64,000 nucleotides of DNA from an uncultured Pirellulales bacterium (GTDB lineage Bacteria > Planctomycetota > Phycisphaerae > Sedimentisphaerales > Anaerobacaceae), in NCBI GenBank assembly GCA_964556885.1, contig CAZKYP010000001.1:2122-66121 (forward strand). Reading direction: 5' to 3'. Positions 11,901 through 27,501 of this stretch are shown piece after piece. Made by a program: the position numbers and the translations under genes. The notes under the pieces were generated by a model. It was not told the DNA's origin. It saw only the letters and a program-made list of their open reading frames with translations, and did no database searches. Within the stretch, counting starts at the first letter, position 1. Each line of letters begins with the position of its first letter.

Positions 11901-14900
11901 AACCGGCAGGTGTGTGTCTTTGTCGAGTTTTTTGTGTTTCGGGGTGAACTTAGCTATGCAGAAACCAAATTTTTCCTTTGAATGAGTTATCAGTTCAAAC
12001 CGTTTATCCTTCTGTATCTCCTGGAAACTATGATGATGTTTGACATGGTAAATATCGTCCAGGGCAATATAACATTCTCCTTGCAGGTTATCTATGAGGT
12101 GATTAAATTCGATATTACCCATGTGGCCGCCGCTGTCAAGAAGGACAAAATCCGGCTTAAAGTCGAATACTTTGAGACATTGATATAGCAAATCGTCGGG
12201 CAGACTGGGAAAATTTGTCTCGTTATAGTAAAGCTCGGCTCTGTTTTCTTCTTTGTGGTCAACGAAAATACCATCATAATCGATATCTGTTATCGTCTTT
12301 CGGGCTATTTCCTCCTTGCTCGGCAACATCGCCCGCGGAACGGACAGGCCGTTAAGTGCATTGACCTTTATGTTATTCGTCTCGAAATATTGTTTCGCAC
12401 GAGTATAATTTTTAGGATTAACTTCGATAGTAAAAAATATTGCATCAACAATACCCAGTCTTTGCAGCGATTTTGTGATTATAGTCGTGGTGCCGGTGCC
12501 AAGATAAGTTCCAGTCTCAATAATCTTTCTTGGTTTGATTTTACTGAATAATTCTTGAATTTTTTCACCGAACGAAGATTCTGCACCAACATTAACTCCA
12601 GTTTTGACATAATCAGCGGCTATCTTAACCTTTTTGGAAACTTTGTCTGTGAGTTCCGAAGGTTCTTTCTGACAGGCTTTTTGTGCTAATGATTTTCGGA
12701 AACTTTCCATTACTTCAGGATGAGAGCCCTCAAAAGGTACAGTCTGTGAATTGATATCGCCAGTCCAGATGGGATATTTTGAATCAATCTCCTGCCTGTT
12801 CGCCGGCATCCATTTCAGGAAACATTCTTTATACCATTCAAGCAGGTCGATATTCCAGTTCTTTCCCCAGCCGTATCTGCAATAAAGCTCGATTTTCTGT
12901 TTTACTTGTTTATCTAAGACATAGCTGTAATGGTAAAAAATTATTCCCATTTGTTTTGTCTGGGTTCCATCCAGCAGGTGCATTTGTTCGGTGGTTTTAT
13001 CGGAGTCGGGCCAGAGCATTGTTGGTGGCCGGTGTGACGTAAACAGGGCGCCGGGAACATACTTAAACAGCCTTCTGTAATGGCACCATTGTTTATAGAA
13101 TGCGGGTGAAACGAAGATGTATTCCAGACCTTTCCAGAAATTGTCCGGGATGAAATTAACCTGTGTAATTGACGGTTCTTTTTTAATAATTTCCTTTATT
13201 TTCTCAAGATGCTCTCTTTTGTAAACCTCGTCGGAATCTATGAGCCAGATATAGTCCCCCGTGACATATTTCAGGGCCTCATTTTGCATCTCACATTTTT
13301 CCGGCCATCTGCCCTGGATAAGCCTGATTTTATTTTGCGGGTCCGGGAAAGACTGTATAAATTCTACTGTTCCATCAGTAGAGCTGCCATCCGGATTGGC
13401 TGCGAACATGCAATTTTCAACGGCGCCTTCTATTATGATTATCTCGTGTGCAAAATCATAAACCGACTTCAGGCTGTATTCGATAAAGGGCATTCCATTC
13501 AGGACGATCATTACGAACGAAAACTTAGGCTCATGTAGCAACTTAGGCTGATCGATAGAATGCGATATTGGCGAAATAATTTCGTCTCGAAGGTTTGTCT
13601 TACTATTTCTTGGATCAAAGGAAATAAGCGATTCTGCAGAAGACGAGTTTTCGTTATTGACGGTCGTTATCTGGTTATTGTTCCGTTCATATTCATTGAT
13701 TGCCTGTCTGAGTCTTTCGAGCAGATTTTTAGCACCGCTGTGTTCGGGCTGGAACCTGAGTTCTGTCTCACAGGCTTGTAGAGCCGAATATAATTTACCG
13801 GCCTGTGTGTAGGCGGCGGCCATAGCAAAATTCAGGTTGGACATATCGGGACAATCCGAGTGTACTTCATTAAAATAATTCAATGCCTCCTGCAAATTGC
13901 CGTCACGCATAAATTCGATACCCATTTTGAGAAGTTCTTCCGCTATTTTATCCTGATGAGGTTGCAGGATTCCCTCGGGACAGGATTTGGCCAATCTGAT
14001 AATTGCCTTTGATTTGTGGTGATCAGGTTGTAATTTTAGCTCTTCGGAACCTGCTTTAGCCGCCTCAATCGTCCTGCCCAGCCTGAGTAGGATGTTGGCT
14101 CTTCGGTAATTGAAATTCGGCCGATTTTCTCCTGCTTCCAGCAGCAGGTCCAGATACTCAAGCGCATCTTCTATTTTCTCCTGTTGTTCAAGCTCGGCAG
14201 ACCTCTTTTGGAAATGCTCGGTTATTAAATCCAGCCTGTCACGGTTCGGGCCATTTTTATATGCGAGAGGAGCATACCGTTTTGCCATGTCCCATATCCC
14301 CATATTGCAGTAGTTAATTACGTGCCATGGATATAGACTTGCTATGGCTTTATCCTTAAGCAAACGTATAGGTTCCGGTGTATCGGTATTGTTGCAAAGA
14401 CGCTCAATTGCGGCCTTTCTCGATGTCATCAGCTCTTCCCTGATTTCCGCCTGATAGCTATACGCTGCCGGATGTACTGCATATTTCGACACAAAACATG
14501 ATATGTGTCGAATGGGAAAGACGGCGCCGAGTCTTGCCCAGATTTCGAATTCGCCGCAACCGCTGTATTGTGAAAGTTTGACTGCATCGTAACATTTTTT
14601 TCTGAAAAAACTGGCGCTAAACGGGGGCATTATTTCGGAGCAGATATATTTCTCATAATCCCATTCTTTAGCTTTAACCCAGCCGGTGATATTGCCGTCG
14701 CAGTCAGTATTATAATGGTCACCGTATATCGCTGCCAGTTCAGGATTTTCCGTCAAGTTCCTGACGGCCCAGGAAACTGCATTTGGCAGCAATTCCTCAT
14801 CGGACAAACATGAACCAAAAAATTCTCCGCGTACTCTTGAAAGACAGCGAAAAAATGCGTCTCCCGGTCCTGAGTCCGGTTCGGAGACAAGATTAATTTG

Positions 14901-15101
14901 GTCTCCGTAACTTTTAAGTAGTTCGAGTGTTCCGTCGGTAGACTCGCCGTCCTGCACAATGATTTCAATGTTCGGATAGTCCTGTGCAAGAATACTGTCA
15001 ATCGACCGCCTGACGGATTTTGCGCGGTTTTTCACGAATGAAAAGATGGATACAAGCGGGTATTTATTAGATTCTGTTTGCACAAATCGGTCCTTTATCA
15101 A
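5940..15101 (-). CDS. Giant multidomain glycosyltransferase / methyltransferase / TPR polyprotein (3053 aa)
   Basis: An uninterrupted 9.16 kb ORF. Six GT2-like modules are visible, for example PLVSIFSFVKN...IEIIVQDGESTDGT, KFSFVMIVLNGMPF...STDGT, two YLVSAIVSTYN...TNANTDDRHR modules, KLSVVIVTYNKP...IIVISNDG and PLVSIIMPVYN...LIVVDDGSTDHT...PLDADD. One GT9 heptosyltransferase-like module is present (KVLIVKTDGIGDFVIF). There are two class I SAM-methyltransferase-like modules (IIETGTYLGTGT and LLDFGCGQ). At least four TPR blocks are present. The start is TTG or GTG and overlaps the upstream gene. Confidence 0.85.
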   Translation of the reverse strand: MIKDRFVQTESNKYPLVSIFSFVKNRAKSVRRSIDSILAQDYPNIEIIVQDGESTDGTLELLKSYGDQINLVSEPDSGPGDAFFRCLSRVRGEFFGSCLSDEELLPNAVSWAVRNLTENPELAAIYGDHYNTDCDGNITGWVKAKEWDYEKYICSEIMPPFSASFFRKKCYDAVKLSQYSGCGEFEIWARLGAVFPIRHISCFVSKYAVHPAAYSYQAEIREELMTSRKAAIERLCNNTDTPEPIRLLKDKAIASLYPWHVINYCNMGIWDMAKRYAPLAYKNGPNRDRLDLITEHFQKRSAELEQQEKIEDALEYLDLLLEAGENRPNFNYRRANILLRLGRTIEAAKAGSEELKLQPDHHKSKAIIRLAKSCPEGILQPHQDKIAEELLKMGIEFMRDGNLQEALNYFNEVHSDCPDMSNLNFAMAAAYTQAGKLYSALQACETELRFQPEHSGAKNLLERLRQAINEYERNNNQITTVNNENSSSAESLISFDPRNSKTNLRDEIISPISHSIDQPKLLHEPKFSFVMIVLNGMPFIEYSLKSVYDFAHEIIIIEGAVENCMFAANPDGSSTDGTVEFIQSFPDPQNKIRLIQGRWPEKCEMQNEALKYVTGDYIWLIDSDEVYKREHLEKIKEIIKKEPSITQVNFIPDNFWKGLEYIFVSPAFYKQWCHYRRLFKYVPGALFTSHRPPTMLWPDSDKTTEQMHLLDGTQTKQMGIIFYHYSYVLDKQVKQKIELYCRYGWGKNWNIDLLEWYKECFLKWMPANRQEIDSKYPIWTGDINSQTVPFEGSHPEVMESFRKSLAQKACQKEPSELTDKVSKKVKIAADYVKTGVNVGAESSFGEKIQELFSKIKPRKIIETGTYLGTGTTTIITKSLQRLGIVDAIFFTIEVNPKNYTRAKQYFETNNIKVNALNGLSVPRAMLPSKEEIARKTITDIDYDGIFVDHKEENRAELYYNETNFPSLPDDLLYQCLKVFDFKPDFVLLDSGGHMGNIEFNHLIDNLQGECYIALDDIYHVKHHHSFQEIQKDKRFELITHSKEKFGFCIAKFTPKHKKLDKDTHLPVNVDNFETGNTINQIIHAQTLLNQGHIVKALKEFEKILIHSQDSIDAHFGRAVCLARLGRLLEAEVEAKNALNKDPENPDSAQFAEQIHRLKPDLKGDRDVEWGSTKSLLTKMTNNHNKGSRLLDFGCGQTAELTRFATQLGYRITAIDMTPLTVSLDGLGDIHFIQGDFLQQDWTPQSYDLIINCSSVEHSGLVGRYGVTKEGIDDDLEIMNQMSKIIKPDGKMLLTIPVGLDMVVGSLHRVYGQTRLVKLLKNWEIESSCFWIKDENNQWREVDEESALQREPMLAYSLGCFMLRPVAHTSSSGDRASTPTYGHQSDTFVHNEDKTNIDVTALKTAVQAISKQQHKVLIVKTDGIGDFVIFSGALPYYRKLYPNSHIAIIVRECTIELAEACPYIDEVIVNHRKSMVYDQNYAADFMSRIQAAKYDVAICPVYSRDKVTDFIVINSGAKEKIASVGDDTNMPAEQVHANNPYFTKLIPAKAGKMLETERNSEFVEGLGLSVIHPYETTLWLEPEHRDYADKLLKDLNIQEPMIICPFAQYEKRNWPDSKWAELMSCLKNYPILICGSKQSSQNAENIIKTTEHPNVRNFCGKTSLRQLAALLERAKLCIGVESAPVHIAATVNCPHVVIIGGGHFGRFMPYSPKTSLVYTQMDCYGCNWRCKYGQDIRCINTITVEMIEQAVNSWLTKIPDSSIQNSKTGKEHAHEKQYLVSAIVSTYNSENFIHDCLEDLEKQTISEKVEIIVIDSGSQQNEGLIVKEFQKKYNNIKYIKTEKRETIYAAWNRGIKIATGKYITNANTDDRHRPDALEIMAKALDANQDKVMVYANQVEVSETDGRRVAVGERINGEFSRDRLFSGQCFPGSQPMWRKEVHNVLGYFDEGFMISGDYEFWFRLTQKYNFLYINETLGERLLSPDAVCKSNSALTSYENIMISKCYNYALQACKIIDWNGISNNPLFSNWPEIQIWKKKVLTKIAAADSRTDYIKNQWDLRGGTKPKLSVVIVTYNKPQQLNENLNALQNQTETDFEIIVISNDGELSELKTISERFKCGLCCIELSKNLGPSYAKNTGASKARADYFAFLDDDAVPDKNFVANILANFAKHNICGLRGKVLPKSSTDSQTAPASYDLGDNVIHTTCEVSSHCAFRKDIFCKVDGYDTDLFGNENRELSYRIYKSLNEKINCIIYAPDVIVYHEPKVDFEHRIEKNLREKEMLKMARKKWPDIELYLQYIRSLYPQNARIFEKDYLKLLSNCLFLQENSPQEAAEWALKAVNLEPDLLKGRYLLGTLYAKLGKFTEAEILLESVFSSVMQSDEFIERKLKTSSDVEKNKTAQIDCYISTGTKLAQCYLNHGKYDKVKQIYHTLLNDNRLNMPQEQTASLKAVLAKLENAPSLPAAPQKSEAISESSAGPESRYLVSAIVSTYNAEKFLRGCMDDLVQQTIADKLEIVIVNSGSEQNEDAIVREYQNKYNNISYIKTDCREGIYTAWNRAVRVARGKYLTNANTDDRHRKDALEIMARTLEKNPEIALIYGDQICTDTPNGTFENHNCIELAKRSEYSKERLLFGCCVGSQPMWRKTLHDELGFFDESLACSGDWDFWLRTSQKYDFKHIPEFLGLYYYNRDGIEHGRRIHSWYERYKVGRRYGREYLGIFPIYQHKDNPLVSIIMPVYNMENYIIEAIESILIQNYMNFELIVVDDGSTDHTKDAVLSFGDPRIKYFYKENGGPYTARNLGMKKASGDFIVPLDADDMMTPDYISSHLKEFEKCPDADLIYCDDYLIDTIGRPTRVIERPEYTDRKYLIRDLFHCGFPVVPFRTCIRKSVFDKIGKFDDSFRNSMDYDMIRLFVKHGLKAHHLKAPLYLRRMVLDSVSRKPSHEGARANFEVLKRFTESFSYDELFPDVAWDKIAPEKRSLHAKCLVAATYLSIGQNFINSNSSPVYAKKAFEQAWSELNECLKMDPNNDQIRQLLQKCDLGRQKYAEQMQTAIY
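7040..7664 (-). repeat. Internal paralogous GT2 module, copy 2, within the giant gene
   Basis: Encodes RYLVSAIVSTYNAEKF...VARGKYLTNANTDDRHRKDALEIMARTL...GSQPMWRK...SGDWDFWLR. It aligns colinearly with copy 1. Boundaries are approximate. Confidence 0.8.
9165..9776 (-). repeat. Internal paralogous GT2 module, copy 1, within the giant gene
   Basis: Encodes QYLVSAIVSTYNSENF...IATGKYITNANTDDRHRPDALEIMAKAL...GSQPMWRK...SGDYEFWFR. Short near-identical DNA patches are shared with copy 2, for example gtattggcatttgt. Boundaries are approximate. Confidence 0.8.
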
Positions 15102-15831
15102 AGAAATTGACTCTGCTGTTAAAAAACTCTATCGCTTGTTTGTATCGGTTGGGTGTTCCGATATCGATTATTTTCTCGTTGGTTATAAAAGCGTGACTGT
15201 TCCGGCCGGCCAGTTGCGGAAACAGGTCATATTCCAGCGAGTACTTCATACCAGCAGGTATCATTGGAAGAACCTCTTTTTGAAAGAGATAGATACCTGC
15301 ATTAATATATCCATGTTTATCAATGTCTTTTTTTTCTTCGAAGCCGATGATCCTCTGCGAGTCATCCAGAAAAACAGAACCGTAACTTTCCGTATTTTCA
15401 GTACCGGTTACGACCATTGACATCAAAGCTTCTCTGTCCGAATGGAATTTAAGAAATTCGGTCATGTCGGCGGTACAAAATGAATCGCCATTGGTGACAA
15501 GGAAAGGATTGCTTATTATTAAATATTGAGCATTCTTAATAGCGCCAGCCGTTCCCAGTGGGCTCTTTTCTTCTGATATAACAAACTCGAGTGAGCTATT
15601 ATTATGAATGAAATGAGCAAGAATTACCTCCGATTTATAACCGGCGCACAAGACAAATCTTTCGAAACCGAATCTGCTGAAATATCCTGTAAGAATATCG
15701 AGAAAAGGCTGTTGATTTATCAGGGCCATCGGTTTGGGACGGTCATTGATAATTGGCGCAAGCCGATTGCCCATTCCTCCGCAGAGGATGACAACGTCTA
15801 TTTCCTCAATTCTCTTTTTATTAATGGTCAT
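15067..15831 (-). CDS. Sugar-1-phosphate nucleotidyltransferase (HddC / heptose-1-P guanylyltransferase-like)
   Basis: The N-terminal motif VVILCGGMGNRLAPIINDRPKPMALI (GGxGxRL) is present, followed by PLGTAGAI. It overlaps the upstream kinase gene by 11 nt. Confidence 0.8.
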   Translation of the reverse strand: MTINKKRIEEIDVVILCGGMGNRLAPIINDRPKPMALINQQPFLDILTGYFSRFGFERFVLCAGYKSEVILAHFIHNNSSLEFVISEEKSPLGTAGAIKNAQYLIISNPFLVTNGDSFCTADMTEFLKFHSDREALMSMVVTGTENTESYGSVFLDDSQRIIGFEEKKDIDKHGYINAGIYLFQKEVLPMIPAGMKYSLEYDLFPQLAGRNSHAFITNEKIIDIGTPNRYKQAIEFFNSRVNFFDKGPICANRI

Positions 15832-16816
15832 TATTCGAGTATAGAGTTATTTGACTTCCCAGTGTTTCAAAATGGAAGGGGACGTACAGGAGATTTTTCA
15901 GAGCCTCTTTGACTGCCCGTTGCTTTCGTGGCGGAACAAATAAAAGCATAAAGCCGCCGCCTCCTGCCCCGCATAATTTCCCTCCGATTGCTCCAGCTTT
16001 TATTGCTGCATCGTACATATCGTCTATGACACTCGTGGTTGTTTTGCTCGATAGACTTTTTTTCAGCTTCCATGACTCGTCAAGCAGCTCACCGAAACGT
16101 TCTATTCTCTCACGGTGGTCGTTAAGAATATTTACAGCTTCCTTAACCATGTCCTTCATCGCACTCAGTTCGGAAGTTTTCTGTGAAGTATTGTTAATCT
16201 GTTCGGTTGCGATCTCGGAAGCAGTCCTGGAAAATCCGGTAAAGAACATCATCAAATGATTCTGAAGTTCCTTTATCCTTGATAGCTCTATTGTGATAGG
16301 ATGTACGGAAAAAGCCGCTTTGCCGTTAAATTCTATCAGGTTGAGTCCACCAAAAGCAGCGGCCACCTGGTCCTGTGAACCCACCGCCTCTCCGATGACA
16401 TTCTGCTCGATACAAATTGCGTTCGAGGCGAGTTGTGCCTTGTCGACCATTCTGCCGGTCAATGCATACAAGGCGTTCAAAAGGCCGACAGTAAAGGCAG
16501 AGCTCGAACCGATACCGGACCGTGCGGGCAAATCACCTGTATGCACCATTTCTATACCCTGGTCTATTCCAAGGAACCTGAGAGACTCCCGTACCGCCGG
16601 ATGCCTGATTTGAAGAAGATTATCTACTTCCTCACGCAGCCTGTATCTTATGAGGTATTTATGATCGAAAAACTGGGGTAGATACCGGCAATTTATGTAG
16701 CAATATTTATTTATGGTCGTATTCAGCACTGCACCGCCATTGTCCCTGTACCATACAGGGTAATCCGTACCGCCGCCAAAGAACGAGATACGATATGGCG
16801 TTCTGCTGATAATCAT
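15821..16816 (-). CDS. GHMP-family sugar kinase (HddA / D-glycero-D-manno-heptose 7-phosphate kinase-like)
   Basis: The N-terminus has RTPYRISFFGGGTDYPVWY. The GHMP motif II PARSGIGSSSAFTVGLLNAL and the C-terminal GGKLCGAGGGGFMLLF are both present. Confidence 0.82.
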   Translation of the reverse strand: MIISRTPYRISFFGGGTDYPVWYRDNGGAVLNTTINKYCYINCRYLPQFFDHKYLIRYRLREEVDNLLQIRHPAVRESLRFLGIDQGIEMVHTGDLPARSGIGSSSAFTVGLLNALYALTGRMVDKAQLASNAICIEQNVIGEAVGSQDQVAAAFGGLNLIEFNGKAAFSVHPITIELSRIKELQNHLMMFFTGFSRTASEIATEQINNTSQKTSELSAMKDMVKEAVNILNDHRERIERFGELLDESWKLKKSLSSKTTTSVIDDMYDAAIKAGAIGGKLCGAGGGGFMLLFVPPRKQRAVKEALKNLLYVPFHFETLGSQITLYSNNDH

Positions 16817-17024: not shown

Positions 17025-17546
17025 TCAAATTAGGTCTGCCGAAGCATCTCTATGTGATAATATAGGACTTTCCACGGGCCACCAGATACCGAACTGCGGC
17101 TCATTCCATCTGTATGTATATTGTTTCGATGGTTCGTAGTAAGTTGACTGCTTGTAATGGAAAATTGTCAGTTCGCTCATAACCAGATGAGCATTTCCGT
17201 ATCTCGGCGGAACCAAAACCTGAAGATTATTCCTGTCGGACAGAACAAATGACTGCCACTTGCCGAAGTCCTTCGATTTGGTATCACAATTAACCACGAC
17301 AAAATAAAATTTACCGTACAAACAGGATATCAGTTTCCATGTACAGTCGTCGCCATGAATGCCGCGCAACACGTTCCTCGTGGAGGTTGAAATATCGTCC
17401 TGGACAAAATTTACATCAATGCCTTTTCCCCTGTATAACTTCTCATTATATGTCTCTATATAGCGGCCGCGGTGATCTTCGAAAGGATCAGGTTGAATAA
17501 CTAAAACCCCATCCAGTTTTGTTTTTTCGACTTTTATCATAATCAA
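17025..17546 (-). CDS. RmlC-like cupin sugar-nucleotide 3,5-epimerase
   Basis: Contains LDGVLVIQPDPFEDHRGRYIETYN and RGIHGD, typical of dTDP-4-dehydrorhamnose 3,5-epimerase-fold enzymes. Confidence 0.8.
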   Translation of the reverse strand: MIMIKVEKTKLDGVLVIQPDPFEDHRGRYIETYNEKLYRGKGIDVNFVQDDISTSTRNVLRGIHGDDCTWKLISCLYGKFYFVVVNCDTKSKDFGKWQSFVLSDRNNLQVLVPPRYGNAHLVMSELTIFHYKQSTYYEPSKQYTYRWNEPQFGIWWPVESPILSHRDASADLI

Positions 17547-17618: not shown

Positions 17619-19076
17619 CTATACATACATATGCTTATTTTTTGCTTTTCCCCTGTTTTTGATATCCTTCAATAAATCATCGAACTTCCGGCGAAATTCA
17701 TTTAATCGCTCAATTTGCATCTTGTATGGTTTGATATAAAATCTGTCATTGTTGTGATAGTGAAAGCCCGGCGTCCGCCAGAGATTGTCGATGTCCATTT
17801 CGTCGATGAATAGCCGGTCTTTCATCGCCTGCTCGAAGACCGATGTACCGGGCAATGGCATAAGATTCGTAACATATACTTCATCGACATCAATCTCTTT
17901 TATCATGTCGTACGATTCCTGAAGCGTCTGCGGAGTCTCCTCCGGGAAACCGATTACGAAATATGCCTTCAAATATAGATCCTGATATTTTCTTAGTAAT
18001 CCCACCACTTCGTAAATCCTGTCCCGTGACAGATGTTTGCCGATTACCTTATTGCGAATAAAATCCGACCCGCTTTCTATGGCAATGGCGCCTCTTACCC
18101 AACCGGCCTGGACCATCGCGTCCGCTGCTTCATGGTCAAGTGGTGCGACGCTCAAACCATTCGGGGTTTCGAATTGGATATCGAGTTTTCTCTCTATAAT
18201 TTCATTACAAATCGTAATTATGTGCTTTTTTTTCAGATTGATATTATCATCCATAAAGCTGAAGTGGTTCAGACCATAATAGTCATGCAACATTTGCATC
18301 TCGTCAACCACATTTTCGGGATTCCTAAATCTGATTTTCGGCCCCATGACCATATACATCGAACAGAAATTACACCTGTTTGGACAACTCCTGCTCGATA
18401 TGATCGGAACTGTCATACCAAATGAAAGCTGCTTTGGATTGTGCCAGTGGGCTATAGAGTGATAATAGTCCCTGAAATTAATCAAATCGTAAGCAGGGAA
18501 AGCCAGATCGTTCAAATCTTCGATGAAATTTTTCTTGGCGTTTACAATCACCTGACCATCTTTACGATACGCAACTCCTTCCAGCCCGGACAATCCACCG
18601 AGGTCGTCTTTATTAATGGCTTTTGCTATAGTGACAATCTGTTGTTCTCCCTCGCCGATTACCACGTAATCTATCGAAAGGCAATTGGTAATGATTTGCT
18701 CAGCAAATATTGTCGGGTGCATTCCGCCAATGACAATTGGAATATGGTTGTATTCTGCCCGTACCCGCTCCGAAAATTTCAGTATTGGTGGGAATTGTCC
18801 GGAAAACAGACAGCCAAAACCAATAAGTAAGGGGCGAAACTCAGCTATGTGCTGAAGAATGATCTCTTCACAGAAAGTTGTTCTGTAAGTATTCTTCTCC
18901 CAGGGTTTATAGATATTTAAATCGAGTATTTTCACTTCAATCCCGTTACACTGTAAAGCAGCGGCAAGATATAAAAGTGAAGTGGGGGGTATGTATTCCT
19001 TGTTCGGCAGAAAATCGAGCGTTGACGGATTGACCAGTAATACGCCCGTATGTTCTTTTTTATCAATCCTTTTCAT
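17619..19076 (-). CDS. B12-binding-domain radical SAM enzyme (class B, probable methyltransferase)
   Basis: The N-terminal half looks like a Rossmann-type cobalamin-binding domain (LLIGFGCLFSGQF...VIGGMHPT). It is followed by the CxxxCxxC cluster SRSCPNRCNFCSM. Confidence 0.8.
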   Translation of the reverse strand: MKRIDKKEHTGVLLVNPSTLDFLPNKEYIPPTSLLYLAAALQCNGIEVKILDLNIYKPWEKNTYRTTFCEEIILQHIAEFRPLLIGFGCLFSGQFPPILKFSERVRAEYNHIPIVIGGMHPTIFAEQIITNCLSIDYVVIGEGEQQIVTIAKAINKDDLGGLSGLEGVAYRKDGQVIVNAKKNFIEDLNDLAFPAYDLINFRDYYHSIAHWHNPKQLSFGMTVPIISSRSCPNRCNFCSMYMVMGPKIRFRNPENVVDEMQMLHDYYGLNHFSFMDDNINLKKKHIITICNEIIERKLDIQFETPNGLSVAPLDHEAADAMVQAGWVRGAIAIESGSDFIRNKVIGKHLSRDRIYEVVGLLRKYQDLYLKAYFVIGFPEETPQTLQESYDMIKEIDVDEVYVTNLMPLPGTSVFEQAMKDRLFIDEMDIDNLWRTPGFHYHNNDRFYIKPYKMQIERLNEFRRKFDDLLKDIKNRGKAKNKHMYV

Positions 19077-19102
19077 TATGTTAAACTCTCCTGTTTTAAC
19101 AT

Positions 19103-20050
19103 CTACTTGATCGGTCTCCAGACCACGTAAGAATGAGAATCATCGAAGAAATTGCCGAGTTGCTGATGATGAACCTTAATTATCTCAATCCTGCCCTGTT
19201 CCTGAAGTTGACGCAGGTGGGTCAAAAAGCCATTCAAGTAGTTCTTTCTCTTATGATATTTCAATGCCAGATAGTCCGGCAGGGCGTCCTGGTTATAAAG
19301 CTCTATAATTCCCTCTATATTTGCACACAGTTCTGGAGACCTTTTCAGGATAAATTCCAGAAAAGGCCCGAAGTTATCTCCGACCTGTTCCAATGCCCCG
19401 AAAGTAAAGATTGCACTGTCGGGTTCTATCTGTATGTTTTCATCCGGGCTGAAAAAATCAAAATAACCGCCTGTGATAGACCAGTTATAGTGTTTAACCA
19501 ATAAACTTATAATTTCCTGTGAGGTTTGCGTCCAGTCGAAGCCGTAGAGCTTTTTATCTGGAAAAATTGTTGCCAGGTAGGCAAGATGCTGTGCTGCTCC
19601 ACAACCGAACTCATAAATATTTTTCACGTTTTGGAAAAATTTCTGAAAAAACCAGCTTCGAAACAGTTTAGTAGCGTTTACGAAAAAATTCTCATCGAGC
19701 GGAATAACATATTTCAGGTTAAGCCTGACTGAGACGTGTTTTCTGAAATATTTTGGAAATAACTTATCTATGTCAAAACCGGATTCGATTAATTCCTGTA
19801 AGTTTTCACCCCATCCTTTTTCCCATGCCGAGATTCTTTGTGGGCCTGTGACGGTTATTTCTTCGGAATCTATGAATTTAAGAAGTTTAAGGATTAATTG
19901 TTCTTTTTTCTCTCCGTCGATTATTCTATATCGAAAATCCGACTTCTCGATATGCTCTGCACAAAACTGTATGATTTCTTCTTCTGTTGCACCGAAAAGT
20001 TCGGCGAAATCTTTCCCTGTAAGATTATAAAATTTTTCACTATCGGCCAT
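19103..20050 (-). CDS. Class I SAM-dependent methyltransferase
   Basis: Glycine-rich motif I IYEFGCGAAQHLAYLA is followed by the acidic loop KLYGFDW. Confidence 0.65.
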   Translation of the reverse strand: MADSEKFYNLTGKDFAELFGATEEEIIQFCAEHIEKSDFRYRIIDGEKKEQLILKLLKFIDSEEITVTGPQRISAWEKGWGENLQELIESGFDIDKLFPKYFRKHVSVRLNLKYVIPLDENFFVNATKLFRSWFFQKFFQNVKNIYEFGCGAAQHLAYLATIFPDKKLYGFDWTQTSQEIISLLVKHYNWSITGGYFDFFSPDENIQIEPDSAIFTFGALEQVGDNFGPFLEFILKRSPELCANIEGIIELYNQDALPDYLALKYHKRKNYLNGFLTHLRQLQEQGRIEIIKVHHQQLGNFFDDSHSYVVWRPIK

Positions 20051-20080
20051 TTACACAATCCTTTGTTCCGAATACGAGCA

Positions 20081-21199
20081 TCAGATAACATTTATATGAC
20101 GTGGCGGATTGGCCATTTCATAGAGATACCCGTTGATTGAGTGCTGTTTACAGCAGAATTTCTGACACTTGTCCGTCTTGATTTCATCGTAAAAACGGTC
20201 GATAACCTGTCGCCACTGTTCGCTCTGCCAGATTTCCCCGAAGCGTTTCTCCTTCAGGTCACCCAGACAATACCTTTCATCCCGCCAACAGAGCTGACAG
20301 GGATACATTTTACCGTCTGCATCTATGTGTGTTTCGAATTCCACACCGTAACATTTTTTATAAGTCCGGGCAGGCGTGCTGACATTCATGAAATAATCAA
20401 GGTATTGCTCATTAAGGAAGACTTTGAAGTTTTCATCCTCCAGCGCCTTTGCCTCGGTAAACTTATCATTGTATTTCTGGTGGAAGGAGTTGCGCTGCCA
20501 GTGGTGATTTTTATTATGCCCCATCACAACAGACGGACAGGGTTTGAAGGCGTTAATCCCGATATTCTTGAGCAGGCGGGCAGTCTCTGCGATATAGGGA
20601 GTACTAAAGTCGAAAACGATATATGTTGCTATAATCACGACATCAAGGTTATCCCTGTCTCTTATCTTTACCGCTTCTTCCAGGGCATTGATAACAGAAT
20701 GAAAATGTGACTCGGGGCAGCCATGTAGCTTTGCATAAAATTCGGCATTATGTGCCAGGGAACTGACCCGCAAAAATGACAGGCTGGATTCAACCTTCTC
20801 CAGGATTTCCTTATTCAGAAGCACACCGTTTGTGACCAGACATATATCCATACCGGCTTTTTTACCAGTTACAATAGCGTCGGGGACTGCCTTGTTAAGC
20901 AGCGGCTCACCCGTTCCCTGAAGCTCACAGCATTTGACACCGGCTTCACCCATATCATGAAATATTTTTATGAGCAAATCTTCAGGAATAGACAAATTCT
21001 TGAATCCGAGATGCTCTACGTAGCAGTAGAAGCATTTCTGATTGCATCGATTTGTGGCGCTGACTTCCACGTACAACGGCGGAAACTTCTTGCCTTCTTT
21101 CCACTTTTGCAATGTATCGAGATGGTGGAAGATTCCGTGCAGACCGTCATAAGCGCCAAGCTTTATTCGTTGCGATTTTTTCTTTTTATCAGGTTCCAC
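20081..21199 (-). CDS. Radical SAM enzyme with C-terminal SPASM/twitch-type Cys-rich domain
   Basis: Has the cluster motif ATNRCNQKCFYCYV. The C-terminal auxiliary-cluster pattern is CYGVEFETHIDADGKMYPCQLC...LGDLKEKRFGEIW...DKCQKFCC. Confidence 0.8.
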   Translation of the reverse strand: MEPDKKKKSQRIKLGAYDGLHGIFHHLDTLQKWKEGKKFPPLYVEVSATNRCNQKCFYCYVEHLGFKNLSIPEDLLIKIFHDMGEAGVKCCELQGTGEPLLNKAVPDAIVTGKKAGMDICLVTNGVLLNKEILEKVESSLSFLRVSSLAHNAEFYAKLHGCPESHFHSVINALEEAVKIRDRDNLDVVIIATYIVFDFSTPYIAETARLLKNIGINAFKPCPSVVMGHNKNHHWQRNSFHQKYNDKFTEAKALEDENFKVFLNEQYLDYFMNVSTPARTYKKCYGVEFETHIDADGKMYPCQLCWRDERYCLGDLKEKRFGEIWQSEQWRQVIDRFYDEIKTDKCQKFCCKQHSINGYLYEMANPPRHINVI

Positions 21200-22409
21200 T
21201 GGACATACACTCCTTTGGCGTAGATTTTTTTACATCATTATTAATTCTGGCAAAACGGTCCTGCATAAAACCGGTGCCGTCTATATTATGCACAATGCCG
21301 GCTTTCTTTAACTCGACCTCGATAATTTTAAGGCGTTTATTCATTGTCTCGTCGTCAATCTTGTCGTCCCTGTTTGATGAGACGGCGCCGGGAGCGTCAT
21401 AATATTTGCTGACCAGAGCATACGCGGGCTTATAAACTCTCAGGAAATCAATCGTCTCCATGAAGTCACTTTCAGTCTCCGATGGAAAACCGACAATAAT
21501 ATGTGTATCGAAGGCTCTGAAATTCAAATCAATCATCAGGCCGAATACCTTATCCAAATCCTTTCTGTTGTACTGACGCTTCATTGCAGCGAGGATCCTG
21601 TCTGATGCCGACTGGATCGGAAGGTTGATATGTATCAGCCAGCCGTCTTCGATAAACTGCTTCATATCATCGTAAAAATCCAGGAAGTTCTTAGGATGAT
21701 AGTTTTGCAGGGCATAGACGGTCTGGGGATATTCGCAGCGCAGACGTCGGATAAGTTGTGGAAGGGAAGAGCCTGTGTCGATTCCATACATTCCGAGGCA
21801 GTCACCAAGAAGGATAATGCGACGCTGGCCCTGTTGTTCAATCGGTACGCGGCAGACCTCAACGAGTTCATCTTCGCTTACGCTTTTATAAGGCGGAAAA
21901 GCAAGCTTTTCAGTGCAATATACACAATTATATGGACAACCCTGACTAATAAGCAGTTTGAAAAATTGGTCTGCAAAAATAACATCCTCTTCGGGATGGA
22001 GTTCTCTGTATTCTGATGCGTCTGTGCAGATCGCATTTTCGTAATAGACCGGTGAGTATTTGTCAAACGAACCGGCTGGGGCGCCGAAATATTCATCGAG
22101 AAATTTCCCCTCCTTTTTCCAGGGGATAATTTTACCTTTAAAACTACCTTCAAGAAGCTTCCTGTCTATATCGGGAAGACAACCAAGCGATATGACCTCT
22201 CCGGGATATTCCCTGCTGCTGCGTTTTAACTCGGAAATACTGTTGTCGACCACATCTTTTCTATAGCCGCAGGTCCAGACCAGAATAACGTCGCTGTCGT
22301 ATGGATTGGATACGACTTCGTGACCGGTACTTTTCAAAAAACACCTATAATGCAAAAGGCTTTGCCTGCGGAGGGCACAAATGTTCAGTCCCTTGATATA
22401 AACTTTCAT
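21189..22409 (-). CDS. Radical SAM enzyme with MiaB/RimO-like (methylthiotransferase-type) N-terminal domain
   Basis: The N-terminal block DVILVWTCGYRKDVVDNSI resembles the MTTase N-domain. The radical SAM motif is SQGCPYNCVYCTE. It overlaps the downstream gene by 11 nt. Confidence 0.7.
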   Translation of the reverse strand: MKVYIKGLNICALRRQSLLHYRCFLKSTGHEVVSNPYDSDVILVWTCGYRKDVVDNSISELKRSSREYPGEVISLGCLPDIDRKLLEGSFKGKIIPWKKEGKFLDEYFGAPAGSFDKYSPVYYENAICTDASEYRELHPEEDVIFADQFFKLLISQGCPYNCVYCTEKLAFPPYKSVSEDELVEVCRVPIEQQGQRRIILLGDCLGMYGIDTGSSLPQLIRRLRCEYPQTVYALQNYHPKNFLDFYDDMKQFIEDGWLIHINLPIQSASDRILAAMKRQYNRKDLDKVFGLMIDLNFRAFDTHIIVGFPSETESDFMETIDFLRVYKPAYALVSKYYDAPGAVSSNRDDKIDDETMNKRLKIIEVELKKAGIVHNIDGTGFMQDRFARINNDVKKSTPKECMSSGT

Positions 22410-22472
22410 TTTTTCAGTTTCTCCACTATATCACAAGATTTATATGACAATCTAATTTAACTTCTTGAGTTT

Positions 22473-23273
22473 TTATTCCACTTCCAGATATGAAAGTCTC
22501 GAAGTCATTGACATACGCTGTATTCGCATTTTGCGCATGTCAATCGCCTCCCGCAACGCGGCCGTTTCTCCCGGGAAAACATTGTCTACCAAGTCGTCGA
22601 AAACAAGAATGCTTCCCTTGCAAAGATACGGTTGAATAATTTCAAGTGCTGCCTTTGTAGGGGTATAGATATCCATGTCAAAGACTGCCAGCGAAACAAT
22701 GGTCTCGGGATGTTTTTCAAGATAAACCGGAAGAGTCTGTACGACGTCACCTTTAATCAGCTCGAATTTCTTTATATGACTGATTGGATTAAGTTGCTCC
22801 TGGAGTGTGAGAATTTTATCGAGATGATTTTCATAGTTGCTCGTCACGGCGAAGGCGCCATCTTTACAATTATGATTGGAGCCATCTTGTTCGCACATAC
22901 CAGTGTGTCCGCGGAAAGTGTCGAATCCTACGATTTTTCGTGTGCGGTTAAAAGGCTCGAATATGCCACGTAACGACGAAAGGATAGACACTGTCTGTCC
23001 CCAGCGTGTCCCGAATTCGATAATGATGCCGTGCATATTTACAATCTTTTTGTATATTTCATAGAAAAACAAAAGCCTGGAGAAATTCTTGCTTGTAAGG
23101 TATAATCCCAGATTTGACAGAAGCTCATCGTCCGGAATCGGGCTGCTTTTAAGTATTTCAACGAGCTTCATCTGAGTCTCTTTTTCATCCGTACTGGAAT
23201 GGACAATATTTGAAACATTTTGAGTTTGCTTCGTTTCATTGCTCCTGACGTCGGTATATTCTTTTAATTTCAT
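22473..23273 (-). CDS. TylF/MycF-family sugar O-methyltransferase-like protein
   Basis: Contains GIIIEFGTRWGQTVSIL and the metal/SAM fold block LAVFDMDIYTPTKAALEIIQPYLCKGSILVFDD. This resembles the macrocin O-methyltransferase family. Confidence 0.65.
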   Translation of the reverse strand: MKLKEYTDVRSNETKQTQNVSNIVHSSTDEKETQMKLVEILKSSPIPDDELLSNLGLYLTSKNFSRLLFFYEIYKKIVNMHGIIIEFGTRWGQTVSILSSLRGIFEPFNRTRKIVGFDTFRGHTGMCEQDGSNHNCKDGAFAVTSNYENHLDKILTLQEQLNPISHIKKFELIKGDVVQTLPVYLEKHPETIVSLAVFDMDIYTPTKAALEIIQPYLCKGSILVFDDLVDNVFPGETAALREAIDMRKMRIQRMSMTSRLSYLEVE

Positions 23274-24721: not shown

Positions 24722-25654
24722 TTAAACGTTTGCATACTGGTTTCTTTTTATTACCTGATATCCTTTGATCAATTCTGTTATGCCGTCATCCAGTGAATAG
24801 ACTGGCTTGAATCCCGCCGCTTCTATCTTCTCGTTGCTTACTATATAATTCCTTTTGTCCGGGTCCAGTCCAACTTTAGCCTCGACAAAATAGAATTTTG
24901 GAACCTGCTTTTGAATCCGCTCGCACAATTGCCATTTGCTCAGGTTGGCGTCGCTCAGCCCGACATTATAAGGCTGGTCTTTCATGCGATTGAAGTTGTC
25001 CAGGCAATGCAGAAAAACCCTTGCCACATCGCGTATATGGATATAGTTCCGCATAAAATGTGCCTGATAAAGAACGATATAGCCGTCATTAACAGCGCGA
25101 TATGTAAAGTCATTGACCAGAAGGTCCAGCCGCATTCTCGGGCTTATACCGAAAACCGTAGCCAGCCTTAACGTAATTACATCACCATCGGATAACAAAT
25201 CTTTTTCTATATCCACCTTTAGTCTGCCGTAAAGCGAAACAGGCTTAAGTGGTGTATCTTCAGTACAATGAATACCTTCCTGACCAATCCCATATCCGCT
25301 GTTTGTTGTCGGAAAAACAATCATCTGGTTTCTGCTTCGCAGCTCGAGAATCATTTTTATAGCATCGTATATGATCGATTTGGCTTCGATTGGAAATTTA
25401 TCACAAAGTGGTGCACCCGTAAGGCACGCAAGAGGCAGGATAACGTCGGCTTTTTTAATATGTTTCGAAATCAGGGATTTATCTCTGACATCGCCGCGAA
25501 TTATGTCGAGATGTTTACTGTGACAGCAATCCAGCAGTGACGCCTGGTTGTACATAAAGTTGTCAATAACAGTGACATCATGGCCGCTGCTCAGTAATTC
25601 CGGGACCAGAACAGAGCCAAGGTATCCTGCACCGCCTGTAACTAAAACTTCCAT
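24722..25654 (-). CDS. NAD-dependent sugar-nucleotide epimerase/dehydratase/reductase (extended SDR)
   Basis: Has the N-terminal VLVTGGAGYLGS motif and the catalytic YxxxK in SLYGRLK. Confidence 0.85.
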   Translation of the reverse strand: MEVLVTGGAGYLGSVLVPELLSSGHDVTVIDNFMYNQASLLDCCHSKHLDIIRGDVRDKSLISKHIKKADVILPLACLTGAPLCDKFPIEAKSIIYDAIKMILELRSRNQMIVFPTTNSGYGIGQEGIHCTEDTPLKPVSLYGRLKVDIEKDLLSDGDVITLRLATVFGISPRMRLDLLVNDFTYRAVNDGYIVLYQAHFMRNYIHIRDVARVFLHCLDNFNRMKDQPYNVGLSDANLSKWQLCERIQKQVPKFYFVEAKVGLDPDKRNYIVSNEKIEAAGFKPVYSLDDGITELIKGYQVIKRNQYANV

Positions 25655-25673: not shown

Positions 25674-26585
25674 CTAATTCCATTCCACGATTGTGTTTAC
25701 GATACTTTCTTTATCAAGTCCGAGTTTACAATGAATATCTTCCCGTATCCCGTATGTATATAAATGGTCATCCGATACGGCCAGCCGCTTCAATGGAACA
25801 GATACACCGGCATCAGTTAGAATTTCGGCAACGATACTTCCGAGTCCGCCATTGATTGTATGCTCTTCGATTGTTATTGCCTTTTTTATGTTTCTTACAG
25901 CTTGAAGAATGCTCTTCGTATCGATTGGTTTGAGCCTATACAGTTCAACAACCTGCGCTTCAATTGAATACTTGACAAGTTCCTTGGCGATCTCGAGCGC
26001 CCTGTGTACCATCATGCCGGTAGCGATGATACAAATATCCCAACCTTTCTTAAGGACGGAAAATCCTTTATCTATATTTTCGTTTTCTTTATGCAGCAGG
26101 GGGTATTTGCCCCTGTCGAGCCGGCAATAAACGGGTGTTTTGGCTCGAAGAGAGACGTCAACAAGAGCGGCTGCCATATTCGTGTCAGCCGGACTGTATA
26201 TGTGCATATTTGGAAGAGCACGCATAACGGCGATATCCTCGGTGGCGTGATGGGTCGGTCCGTCTACACCGTATGCATAGCAGGGCCCCACACCTATGAG
26301 AGTTACAGGCAGATTCATAGCGCACAAATCGATTTTCAACTGCTCGTAGCAACGCAGTGTAATAAAAGAAGCTATGCTGTACACATAAACCTTCTTGCCT
26401 GCTAAGGCCATACCGGCCGCGACTGAAATAAGATTCTGCTCTGAGATGCCGCCGTTGATAAACTGCTTCGACAGGTCCGCTCGGAATTTATCCAGACTCG
26501 GGGCGCCGTATTCATTGGACATAAAAATTATGTCAGGATCAGATTTTGCCCGAGTATATAGTTTCTGGATAAATGCGTCTCTCAT
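25674..26585 (-). CDS. Transketolase, C-terminal (pyrimidine-binding) subunit of a split enzyme
   Basis: Contains GISEQNLISVAAGMALAGKKVYVYS and GVDGPTHHATEDIAVMRALPNM. It is paired with the adjacent N-terminal subunit gene. Confidence 0.88.
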   Translation of the reverse strand: MRDAFIQKLYTRAKSDPDIIFMSNEYGAPSLDKFRADLSKQFINGGISEQNLISVAAGMALAGKKVYVYSIASFITLRCYEQLKIDLCAMNLPVTLIGVGPCYAYGVDGPTHHATEDIAVMRALPNMHIYSPADTNMAAALVDVSLRAKTPVYCRLDRGKYPLLHKENENIDKGFSVLKKGWDICIIATGMMVHRALEIAKELVKYSIEAQVVELYRLKPIDTKSILQAVRNIKKAITIEEHTINGGLGSIVAEILTDAGVSVPLKRLAVSDDHLYTYGIREDIHCKLGLDKESIVNTIVEWN

Positions 26586-26607
26586 ATTAGTTCCAAATAC
26601 TCTATAT

Positions 26608-27501
26608 CTAACCGCGTTCCAATTCTTCTATCGCCATTTTAATTTCTTCCTTACGGTTTAAGGAACGGACATGCCATGTCGGATCATTTTCCATAAAGGA
26701 AATGCCTTTACCTTTGACTGTTTCGGCGATGATAATCAACGGCGTGCAGGTATCTCTCGAACGGGCATAGCGAAAAGCCCCGTCAAGCTGGTTAAAATCA
26801 TGTCCGTTACATACGACAGTTTCCCATCCGAAGGACTTCCACTTGTCACCAAAAGGCTCAAGGCCCGTGAAATTGTCTGTGAAATCGATTGATCCGATGT
26901 GATTTCTGTCCACAATAGCGACTATATTGTCTAATTCATGTTTGCCGGCAAACATGGCGGCTTCCCAGACCGAGCCTTCGGTACATTCGGCATCACCCAT
27001 CAGTACGAACTGGAAGTGATTTTTGTTATCCATTTTCGCGGCCAGAGATATACCGGCCGCAATTCCAAGTCCATGACCGAGAGAACCGCTTGTGATTTCA
27101 ACGCCGGGTATAGCTCTGTCCGGATGTCCGCCGAGAAAACAGTCACCTCGTCGGTAGCGGGTTTCGAGCCATGATACGGGGAAAAAACCGAGGTCCGCCA
27201 AAACGGCATACAGGGCGGTTTCGCCGTGTCCTTTGCTTAACAAAAATCGGTCCCGGTCTTCCCACTCTGGGACACTCGGGTCAACATTCAAATTGTGACC
27301 ATAGTATAGAGAGACCAGAATATCGACACAGGAAAGTGACGAAACTATATGCCCTCCGGTGCTTATACACATTTGTAATACTTTTTTGCGTATTTGATTC
27401 GCTTTGTGTTCCAATTCAACCGCATTCAGATGAAGTTCTTTTAATGAAGCGATTATCGTTTCCATGTTACGTTTAGTGGTATCTTCTTTTATAATCTTCA
27501 A
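26608..27501 (-). CDS. Transketolase, N-terminal (ThDP-binding) subunit of a split enzyme
   Basis: Contains GGHIVSSLSCVDILVSLYY, LSKGHGETALYAVLADLG, GSLGHGLGIAAG and the ThDP motif GDAECTEGSVWEA. Confidence 0.88.
   Translation of the reverse strand: MKIIKEDTTKRNMETIIASLKELHLNAVELEHKANQIRKKVLQMCISTGGHIVSSLSCVDILVSLYYGHNLNVDPSVPEWEDRDRFLLSKGHGETALYAVLADLGFFPVSWLETRYRRGDCFLGGHPDRAIPGVEITSGSLGHGLGIAAGISLAAKMDNKNHFQFVLMGDAECTEGSVWEAAMFAGKHELDNIVAIVDRNHIGSIDFTDNFTGLEPFGDKWKSFGWETVVCNGHDFNQLDGAFRYARSRDTCTPLIIIAETVKGKGISFMENDPTWHVRSLNRKEEIKMAIEELERG

Follow-up and report, generated by a model that had tools for sequence, protein, structure and literature searches.

Islands for the glycosylation of flagellin contain a large block of sugar and glycosyltransferase genes between flgL and fliD; that of Pseudomonas aeruginosa is next to flgL, and the known islands use nonulosonic acid or viosamine. 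The biosynthesis of guanosine diphosphate (GDP)-heptoses by the capsule locus of Campylobacter jejuni employs GmhA, HddA, GmhB, and HddC, the C4-dehydrogenase Cj1427, 3,5-epimerases of the Cj1430 type, a C3-dehydratase dependent on pyridoxal phosphate, and C4-reductases (PMC10680097). According to a paper from 2023, the substrates of methylthiotransferases (MTTases) then known were limited to A37 of tRNA and ribosomal protein S12 (PMC10702137). The window analysed here, a stretch of 64,000 nucleotides of contig CAZKYP010000001.1 (assembly GCA_964556885.1) from an uncultured Pirellulales bacterium, contains at positions 17619–23273 of the minus strand five adjacent genes, which encode three radical S-adenosylmethionine (SAM) enzymes and two methyltransferases. 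The genes are placed in a flagellar island, belong to a conserved nucleotide-heptose cassette, and encode recognizable domains in which the ligands of the clusters have been kept. They probably form the tailoring core of the cassette, a GDP-heptose module that feeds a glycosylation island located between fliD and flgL, and the radical SAM enzymes are likely to act on the sugar.

The five open reading frames (ORFs) are co-directional and follow each other back to back, as described in an earlier, sequence-only reading of the window. The CX3CX2C motifs that it quoted are all present: CPNRCNFC in the class B (B12-binding) enzyme, CNQKCFYC in the twitch-like enzyme, and CPYNCVYC in the MTTase-like enzyme. 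Some of the genes had been described as overlapping, which is true of one pair: the genes of the twitch-like and MTTase-like enzymes share 11 nucleotides, but the remaining gaps within the block are 26–63 nucleotides long. Since none of the gaps exceeds 63 nucleotides, a precursor-peptide gene could not be accommodated, in agreement with the earlier failure to notice one. None of the five proteins reaches the cut-off of a curated housekeeping family in NCBIfam; an assignment to housekeeping roles had been named by the sequence-only reading as a reason to reject it, and this outcome speaks in its favour.

Loci for comparison were collected from GTDB genomes, metagenomes, and exact-protein look-ups, and duplicates were removed. 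A locus was considered orthologous if its MTTase-like protein was at least 35% identical to that of the window, which yielded 81 non-redundant loci, 47 of them at least 9 kb long. The presence of genes was scored by tblastn with the window proteins, so that divergent analogues are undercounted. The CalS11-like methyltransferase is present in 46 of the 47 long loci, a split transketolase in 43, a heptose-type kinase in 34, a class B radical SAM enzyme in 30, a nucleotidyltransferase in 29, a cupin epimerase in 27, and the methyltransferase MT315 in 17. All 23 loci of 9 kb or more in which the paralogues have less than 35% identity lack the transketolase, kinase, nucleotidyltransferase, and epimerase. 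Unbiased all-against-all clustering of the neighbours recovered the same core gene set. The hosts of the cassette belong to very diverse phyla and include an archaeon.

The order of the five genes is repeated in two other loci, L054 (66–84% identity) and L055 (GCA_964551285.1; 40–71% identity); therefore, their adjacency is not due to chance. In L055 the genes encode, in this order, the N-terminal and C-terminal subunits of the transketolase, a short-chain dehydrogenase/reductase (SDR), the 266-residue methyltransferase MT266, the MTTase-like enzyme, the twitch-like enzyme, MT315, the class B enzyme, the epimerase, the kinase, and the nucleotidyltransferase. The sequence-only reading had named a lack of conserved adjacency as grounds for its rejection, and these repeats, together with the neighbours found in the 47 loci, speak in its favour. 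On a common chassis composed of the transketolase and the GDP-heptose genes, the five genes constitute exchangeable tailoring modules. When lists of homologues were matched, at least 13 contigs were found to hold both the MTTase-like gene and that of the twitch-like enzyme. A gene similar to dienelactone hydrolases (DLH) and esterases is positioned between these two in L055 (9330–10016), in L056 (11196–11786), and in a contig from JGI; the DLH-type esterase is absent from the window, where the two genes overlap.

Loci L029–L048 (for example L034, L039, L040, and L042) served as a negative control. They contain tandem paralogues of distant MTTase-like proteins without a TRAM domain, with identities of 24–31%, next to class B radical SAM enzymes, a beta-ketoacyl-synthase-like gene, and an acyl/nucleotidyl-transferase-like gene. 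These MTTase-like proteins are not canonical tRNA enzymes and reside in other uncharacterised clusters, which look like a different, possibly lipid-related system.

The hallmark gene of the cassette is that of the MTTase-like enzyme. Its earlier description as a MiaB/RimO-like protein is borne out by the UPF0004 (28.2 bits in Pfam, cut-off 27) and Radical_SAM (E 6.5e-18) domains and by the AlphaFold2 model (predicted local distance difference test (pLDDT) 92.4), for which MtaB, MiaB, and RimO are the top folds, with a TM-score normalized to the query (TMq) of about 0.70. Cysteines C11, C47, and C77 of the auxiliary cluster and C158, C162, and C165 of the radical SAM cluster are invariant across 28 homologues. 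The three-cysteine N-domain of the UPF0004 type, the CX3CX2C core, and the predicted fold are shared with MiaB, MtaB/e-MtaB, and RimO. By contrast, the enzyme is encoded in a sugar operon, is 20–23% identical to solved MTTases, and scores below every family and equivalog cut-off (TIGR00089 157/251, MiaB 92/355, RimO 102/357, and MtaB 99/357 bits). A TRAM domain was not detected in Pfam, and the NCBIfam match stops at position 359 of the 429 positions of the profile; in the model, the place of TRAM is taken by a tail of about 40 residues with a helix-strand-helix structure. The clade comprises at least 120 clusters at 90% identity, with proteins of 390–400 residues that are 41–73% identical to the window protein; their taxon labels include Geobacter, Desulfovibrio, Magnetococcales, Planctomycetes, Omnitrophota, Patescibacteria, Methylomirabilia, and Methanoperedens. 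The enzyme appears to have been recruited from the fold of tRNA and protein methylthiotransferases to sugar chemistry.

The twitch-like enzyme contains a Radical_SAM domain and matches SPASM (PF13186) in Pfam with 39.3 bits at a cut-off of 21.5. The previous assignment to SPASM/twitch enzymes is upheld by this match, but the seven-cysteine motif of SPASM is missing. Among the C-terminal cysteines, only C283, C301, C345, and C350 are conserved throughout the 30 homologues compared, while C311 is present in 23 of the 30, and C304 and C349 are variable. The four invariant residues suggest that the enzyme most likely binds one auxiliary cluster, in the manner of twitch enzymes, and not the two clusters of a full SPASM domain. 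We take the spacing of these cysteines to resemble that of the auxiliary cluster of BtrN. The MoaA equivalog score of the radical SAM set is 68 bits (NCBIfam cut-off 325). The family is separate and rare, with 64 matches in 5.8 billion proteins. The AlphaFold2 model (pLDDT 89.7) has its best Foldseek matches in DesII (TMq 0.64–0.68), BlsE (TMq 0.62; normalized to the target, TMt, 0.69), and SkfB (TMq 0.61), and SuiB is another structural neighbour. DesII acts on a thymidine diphosphate (TDP)-sugar, and BlsE, which is also the best sequence match in the PDB, on a nucleoside sugar. However, the identity of the twitch-like enzyme to DesII, BlsE, and BtrN is merely 14–20%. DesII lacks an auxiliary cluster. 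Distant members of the family occur in other sugar clusters of the heptose or thiamine diphosphate (ThDP) type, with HldE, E1, transketolase, and SDRs, even where no MTTase is encoded. A 19% match labelled 'SPASM' in L023 was rejected as spurious.

The class B protein was correctly recognized in the sequence-only reading, as it comprises a B12-binding domain (PF02310, E 1e-19, residues 28–147) and a radical SAM domain (PF04055, E 8e-18, residues 225–392). It shares this architecture with TsrM, Fom3, GenK, PhpK, Sden_1168, and MgmA, and its PDB matches include TsrM and MgmA (9ccb). Its best NCBIfam match is the P-methyltransferase Sden_1168 (187 bits, cut-off 575), followed by 156 of 481 bits for BchE; it lies far below all cut-offs of the characterised subfamilies BchE, PhpK, Sden_1168, HpnR, TsrM, and GenK-type. 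The enzyme is predicted to be a C-methyltransferase or another cobalamin-dependent radical enzyme of the sugar pathway. It differs from the known cobalamin-dependent methylases in its presumed substrate, a nucleotide sugar, and in that the subfamily varies between cassettes. The family of the window enzyme is large and uncharacterised (633 matches at E<1e-30). Its orthologues are part of cassettes with transketolase, SDR, MT315, RmlC-type epimerase, GHMP kinase, and nucleotidyltransferase in L054, L055, L057, and L058; in L057 this complete set is present, and the genes of the MTTase-like and twitch-like enzymes are absent. Weak tblastn matches of 22–28% identity in other loci belong to other class B subfamilies and were not accepted as orthologues.

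The Syntrophobacteraceae locus L058 (1950–15653) combines the window-type class B orthologue with three ThDP enzymes: an E1 alpha/beta pair, an acetolactate-synthase/YerE-like protein, and a split transketolase. The same locus encodes SDRs, a cupin epimerase, and a DegT protein. The gene set suggests the formation of a branched-chain sugar.

Both methyltransferases had been assigned correctly in the sequence-only reading. MT315, which had been called a class I methyltransferase, has no significant Pfam match on its own, and its membership is revealed by the family: all ten sampled members match Methyltransf_25 (best E 9e-7), the family profile matches class I methyltransferase structures such as CouO, NovO, and a polyketide synthase C-methyltransferase, and an E-x-G-C-G motif is invariant. 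In two loci an MT315-type protein is fused in one ORF with the C-terminal subunit of the transketolase (L017 3807–5678 and L022 5214–7118). The 266-residue protein, previously described as a TylF-like O-methyltransferase, matches CalS11, a TDP-rhamnose 3'-O-methyltransferase of the TylF superfamily, with E 4e-57 over 231 residues, and Methyltransf_24 is just under its cut-off. The similarity indicates an O-methyltransferase for nucleoside diphosphate (NDP)-sugars. In contrast to CalS11, it presumably acts on a derivative of GDP-heptose, and the MTTase-like gene is adjoined by one to two paralogues; CalS11-like genes often lie on both sides of it, and it is flanked by them in about 20 of 30 loci.

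The genes surrounding the core have their nearest solved or curated counterparts among GDP-heptose enzymes, on which ground the cassette is assigned to GDP-heptose; it is very probably a nucleotide-heptose tailoring pathway. The GT9 heptosyltransferase domain of the adjacent giant glycosyltransferase points the same way. The top PDB matches of the cupin epimerase are the GDP-D-glycero-4-keto-D-lyxo-heptose 3,5-epimerases of C. jejuni (E 3e-37), and RmlC enzymes acting on deoxythymidine diphosphate sugars are ranked lower. The best NCBIfam match of the kinase is HddA (E 7e-47), and that of the nucleotidyltransferase is HddC (E 5e-44). Among the top four PDB matches of the kinase, 3k85 and 4n3o are named heptose-phosphate kinases, and the two that rank first, 4usk and 4usm, are entered as 'putative sugar kinase'; we take them to be the heptokinase WcbL. 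The SDR, the only one of the island, is 57% identical over 308 residues (E 9e-118) to PDB entry 6VO6, presumably Cj1427. The function of dehydrogenases of the Cj1427 type has been covered in work on C. jejuni (PMC10680097).

The enzyme classes of the cassette match those of the C. jejuni scheme, and some relatives also encode a DegT-family protein in which histidine replaces the catalytic lysine. This is the signature of sugar 3-dehydratases, a class that serves 3,6-dideoxy-heptoses in C. jejuni (PMC10680097), so that a putative DegT-type C3-dehydratase is common to both. Beyond that scheme, the cassette has the split transketolase, as many as four types of methyltransferase, and as many as three radical SAM enzymes. 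Whereas the C. jejuni genes form a capsule locus, those of the window are part of a flagellar island that lacks a C4-reductase, GmhA, and GmhB. A C4-reductase is likewise missing from L055 and L056; either some other enzyme uses up the 4-keto group, or the gene of the reductase may be located elsewhere. GmhA (SIS_2) and GmhB (HAD) are encoded within the cassette in L005, L006, L011, L063, L065, and L083. The hosts of cassette-borne GmhA and GmhB include a Methanoperedens archaeon and a metagenome-assembled genome (MAG) of Anaerolineaceae (Chloroflexi), in which a heptose of lipopolysaccharide is unlikely. A role of the transketolase in a 'DHAP-shunt' (dihydroxyacetone phosphate) for the salvage of 5-deoxyribose or methylthioribose was considered and rejected, as there are no MtnA/MtnK-type genes beside it and its neighbours are NDP-sugar enzymes.

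The cassette is contained in a block of sugar and glycosyltransferase genes of about 27 kb (5940–33181), which are all on the minus strand between fliD and flgL (Table 1). The genes are transcribed in the order of the protein with tetratricopeptide repeats (TPRs) and a GT1 domain, GT2, TPR protein, 109-residue ORF, GT2-methyltransferase fusion, N-terminal and C-terminal transketolase subunits, SDR, Glyco_trans_1_2 protein, five core genes, epimerase, kinase, nucleotidyltransferase, and the 3053-residue protein. The island fills the interval from flgL to fliD, which is the usual place of flagellin genes. The 394-residue protein with a Flagellin_N domain encoded after flgK is most likely FlgL. 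Immediately downstream of flgL, the protein with N-terminal TPRs and a C-terminal GT1 domain of the GT-B type resembles FlmG in architecture. The same arrangement of N-terminal TPRs and a glycosyltransferase domain characterizes the FlmG flagellin glycosyltransferases of Caulobacter and Brevundimonas (bioRxiv 10.1101/2022.03.25.485807). Unlike the sugars of the known flagellin islands, that of the window is predicted to be derived from heptose, and three radical SAM enzymes are added.

Table 1 Genes of the glycosylation island and its boundaries, in window coordinates
Feature	Position	Strand	Support
fliD (filament cap), island boundary	3806..5845	-	Pfam FliD_N, FliD_C
3053-residue multi-domain protein: six GT2, one GT9 (heptosyltransferase), class I/DUF268 methyltransferase, TPRs	5940..15101	-	Pfam
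Nucleotidyltransferase, predicted heptose-1-phosphate guanylyltransferase (HddC-like)	15067..15831	-	NCBIfam
GHMP kinase, predicted D-glycero-D-manno-heptose 7-phosphate kinase (HddA/WcbL-like)	15821..16816	-	
Cupin 3,5-epimerase, predicted GDP-4-keto-heptose 3,5-epimerase	17025..17546	-	PDB E 3e-37
Class B (B12-binding) radical SAM enzyme, 485 residues	17619..19076	-	Pfam B12-binding + Radical_SAM
Class I SAM-dependent methyltransferase MT315, divergent, 315 residues	19103..20050	-	Family-level Methyltransf_25 matches
Twitch-like (SPASM Pfam) radical SAM enzyme, 372 residues	20081..21199	-	Pfam Radical_SAM + SPASM
TRAM-less MTTase-like radical SAM enzyme, 406 residues, cassette hallmark	21189..22409	-	UPF0004 + Radical_SAM
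CalS11/TylF-type NDP-sugar O-methyltransferase, 266 residues	22473..23273	-	CalS11 match E 4e-57
Glycosyltransferase (Glyco_trans_1_2) with C-terminal TPR-like tail, 455 residues	23323..24690	-	Pfam E 4.5e-19
SDR, C4-dehydrogenase-like	24722..25654	-	PDB 6VO6 match
Split transketolase: N-terminal ThDP-binding subunit 26608-27501, pyrimidine-binding/C-terminal subunit 25674-26585	25674..27501	-	Pfam
GT2-methyltransferase fusion	27511-28755	-	Pfam
109-residue ORF, then TPR protein	between 27511-28755 and 30011-31588	-	
GT2	30011-31588	-	Pfam
TPR + GT1 protein, FlmG-like architecture	31625-33181	-	Pfam
flgL, other island boundary	33392-34576	-	Pfam Flagellin_N
flgK	34626-36593	-	Pfam FlgK_D1

The island is embedded in a flagellar regulon. 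On one side, fliO, fliP, fliR, and flhB precede fliD; on the other, flgL is followed by flgK, flgN, flgI, flgH, flgA, flgG, flgF, and flgE, beyond which lie genes for two sigma-54 activators, fliL, a fliM/N-like gene, flhA, and the gene of a sigma-28-like factor. In the rod/hook operon, a 413-residue ORF without a Pfam match (42014–43255, minus strand) separates flgE from flgF. Rfam identified neither riboswitches nor other RNAs in the window, and scans of the window for promoters and terminators gave background levels and were uninformative.

Glycosyltransferases of the island have counterparts in other loci. Orthologues of the 455-residue glycosyltransferase are present in L054 (66% identity) and L017 (48%). 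In L007, L017, L022, L023, and L024, parts of the 3053-residue protein (42–59% identity) are encoded next to the cassette by individual genes. In L055 and L057, genes for DUF268, GT2, and GT11 proteins come after the nucleotidyltransferase. A single one of the roughly 47 long loci, L006 from a Methylomirabilia MAG, has flagellar genes within 10 kb of the cassette. The layout of L006 (1252–21173) is that of the window, with flgK, flgL, the heptose/transketolase/MTTase cassette, and a 1781-residue protein with multiple glycosyltransferase domains. The sequence-only reading had regarded the occurrence of the three radical SAM enzymes in a flagellar locus as unusual. That view has to be replaced: as a mobile module for glycans in general, the cassette is found in a flagellar setting only in the window and in L006, and elsewhere it likely serves other surface glycans.

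The order of reactions can be proposed with different degrees of support. The early heptose steps, anchored by homology, would start with GmhA and GmhB possibly supplied from elsewhere in the genome. The Cj1427-like SDR would then oxidize C4 and the cupin epimerase scramble C3 and C5, as suggested by their similarity to solved enzymes. The decoration of GDP-(4-keto)-heptose by the five core enzymes is deduced from the chemistry of their families and from synteny. The CalS11-like enzyme would O-methylate the sugar, MT315 would add a further methyl group, and the class B enzyme would methylate an unactivated carbon. The twitch-like enzyme might carry out a radical oxidation, elimination, or epimerization of the DesII/BlsE/BtrN type. 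The MTTase-like enzyme, using both the auxiliary [4Fe-4S] cluster at its N-terminus and the radical SAM cluster, might install a methylthio group or other sulfur at a C–H position of the sugar; that it truly methylthiolates its substrate is a tentative assignment, somewhat short of probable.

The transketolase would either supply sedoheptulose-7-phosphate or add a two-carbon ketol to the 4-keto sugar, which would result in a branched higher sugar; the two roles are considered about equally likely. A 4-keto sugar is branched in a ThDP-dependent manner by YerE in the biosynthesis of yersiniose, which provides a precedent. It is possible, if a little doubtful, that the transketolase branches the sugar; this role is favoured by the absence of a C4-reductase from the island and by the transketolase-MT315 fusions. 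In a Rosetta-stone manner, the fusions suggest that the transketolase participates in tailoring and not only in precursor supply. In the last step, the GT9 heptosyltransferase domain and the FlmG-like TPR-glycosyltransferase would transfer the product, most likely to flagellin, as proposed from the location of their genes. Flagellin is on balance the expected acceptor in this genome.

Several observations weigh against a heptose-tailoring pathway that decorates flagellin. Nearly all of the comparison loci are MAG or metagenome contigs, and many are truncated. The gene of the twitch-like enzyme is present in only about 6 of the 47 long loci, and the class B enzymes of different cassettes belong to several subfamilies, of which that of the window is not the dominant one; therefore, class B enzymes are interchangeable accessories. 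The kinase, with 161 bits at a cut-off of 600, and the nucleotidyltransferase, with 151 bits at a cut-off of 300, remain below the thresholds of their NCBIfam families, as does the transketolase. The 64-kb window contains neither GmhA nor GmhB, which may be encoded elsewhere in this genome. The whole window (1–64000) also lacks a flagellin gene. We know of no methylthio-heptose from any glycan. A literature search retrieved no paper on any member of the three radical SAM subfamilies.

The alternative that survives best retains the sugar pathway and assigns to the MTTase-like enzyme a radical chemistry other than methylthiolation: thiolation without methyl transfer, C–C bond formation, C-methylation, or functionalization of the O-methyl group made by the CalS11-like enzyme. 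The distance of the protein from solved MTTases, its failure to reach the family cut-off, the CalS11-like methyltransferases flanking its gene, and the lack of a dedicated sulfur-mobilization gene in the cassette point in this direction. However, the three cysteines of the auxiliary cluster and those of the radical SAM cluster are invariant, the overall fold is that of MTTases, and canonical MTTases also function without a dedicated sulfur donor gene nearby. We consider this alternative rather unlikely.

It is improbable that the cassette produces a small molecule that is not part of a glycan, such as a heptose metabolite of the septacidin or hygromycin type, and that its flagellar siting is incidental. 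Flagellar genes are missing from most orthologous loci, and the tailoring of sugars by radical SAM enzymes is best known from antibiotic pathways (DesII, BlsE, AprD4, GenK), both of which speak for such a product. By contrast, the cassette of the window is enclosed by co-directional glycosyltransferase genes (GT9, GT2, and the FlmG-like TPR-glycosyltransferase), glycosyltransferase modules homologous to the giant protein follow it in L006, L007, L017, L022, L023, and L024, an ABC transporter similar to Wzm/Wzt adjoins it in L056 and L057, and no aglycone-type biosynthetic genes were seen.

The radical SAM enzymes could instead modify a protein or peptide, either flagellin, in the way RimO modifies S12, or the precursor of a ribosomally synthesized and post-translationally modified peptide. 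The MTTase RimO has a protein as its substrate, the maturation of peptides is the task of many SPASM enzymes, the structural neighbours of the twitch-like enzyme include SkfB and SuiB, and the genes are in a flagellar locus. However, nucleotide-sugar genes accompany the MTTase-like clade in all 47 long loci (9 kb or more). Flagellar genes are close by in a single one of these, and an archaeon and Patescibacteria are among the hosts. Furthermore, no peptide gene fits into the core, the MTTase-like protein has no TRAM domain, and DesII and BlsE score equal to or above the peptide enzymes in the fold comparison. A modified sugar and a protein substrate had been left as two options by the sequence-only reading. 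The first is well supported by the heptose cassette and the folds of DesII and BlsE, whereas the second is disfavoured by the same evidence and by the lack of space for a peptide gene, and we regard it as very improbable. The chance is negligible that the enzymes are housekeeping proteins (a true MiaB, RimO, or MtaB; MoaA; a BchE or HemN-type enzyme) that entered the island by accident, a view encouraged by metagenome pipelines that label homologues 'MiaB', 'MtaB', 'GTP 3',8-cyclase', and 'Mg-protoporphyrin cyclase', because the scores are far below the MiaB, RimO, MtaB, MoaA, and BchE cut-offs, TRAM is absent, and synteny with the sugar genes is tightly conserved.

The preferred interpretation, a GDP-heptose pathway with radical SAM tailoring, comprises a known and a new part. 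The chassis is that of the C. jejuni GDP-heptose pathway (PMC10680097). The new part would be a substrate class and genetic context for the MTTase fold and a layer of decoration on GDP-heptose; the system as a whole is not categorically new. The literature search identified no described counterpart of the radical SAM layer, and nothing relevant on methylthiotransferases in connection with sugars or flagellin glycosylation. A radical SAM protein of the C. jejuni HS:19 capsule appears as a gene-list annotation only.

The MTTase-like clade accompanies GDP-heptose operons in no fewer than 81 non-redundant loci, whose hosts range from Geobacter to Methanoperedens. One speculative proposal, which we regard as rather unlikely, is that this TRAM-less clade is the first family of methylthiotransferases to act on a nucleotide sugar. 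Together with ThDP-dependent C2-branching, the class B C-methylase, and the twitch-like enzyme, it would build a methylthio-bearing, C-methylated, and possibly branched higher-carbon heptose that, in this genome, decorates the flagellar filament. The GDP-heptose intermediates of C. jejuni are available enzymatically, and the hypothesis is therefore directly testable in vitro. The cassette provides a functional context for three large or rare groups of 'radical SAM proteins' that are mis-annotated in metagenomes as MiaB, MtaB, MoaA, or BchE. If the proposal is true, a sugar-directed methylthiotransferase would represent a new substrate class and extend methylthiolation to carbohydrates. Its product would be a type of monosaccharide not yet described, belonging to a new family of surface sugars of bacteria and archaea, and the cassette for making it would be distributed across many uncultured anaerobic bacteria and archaea.

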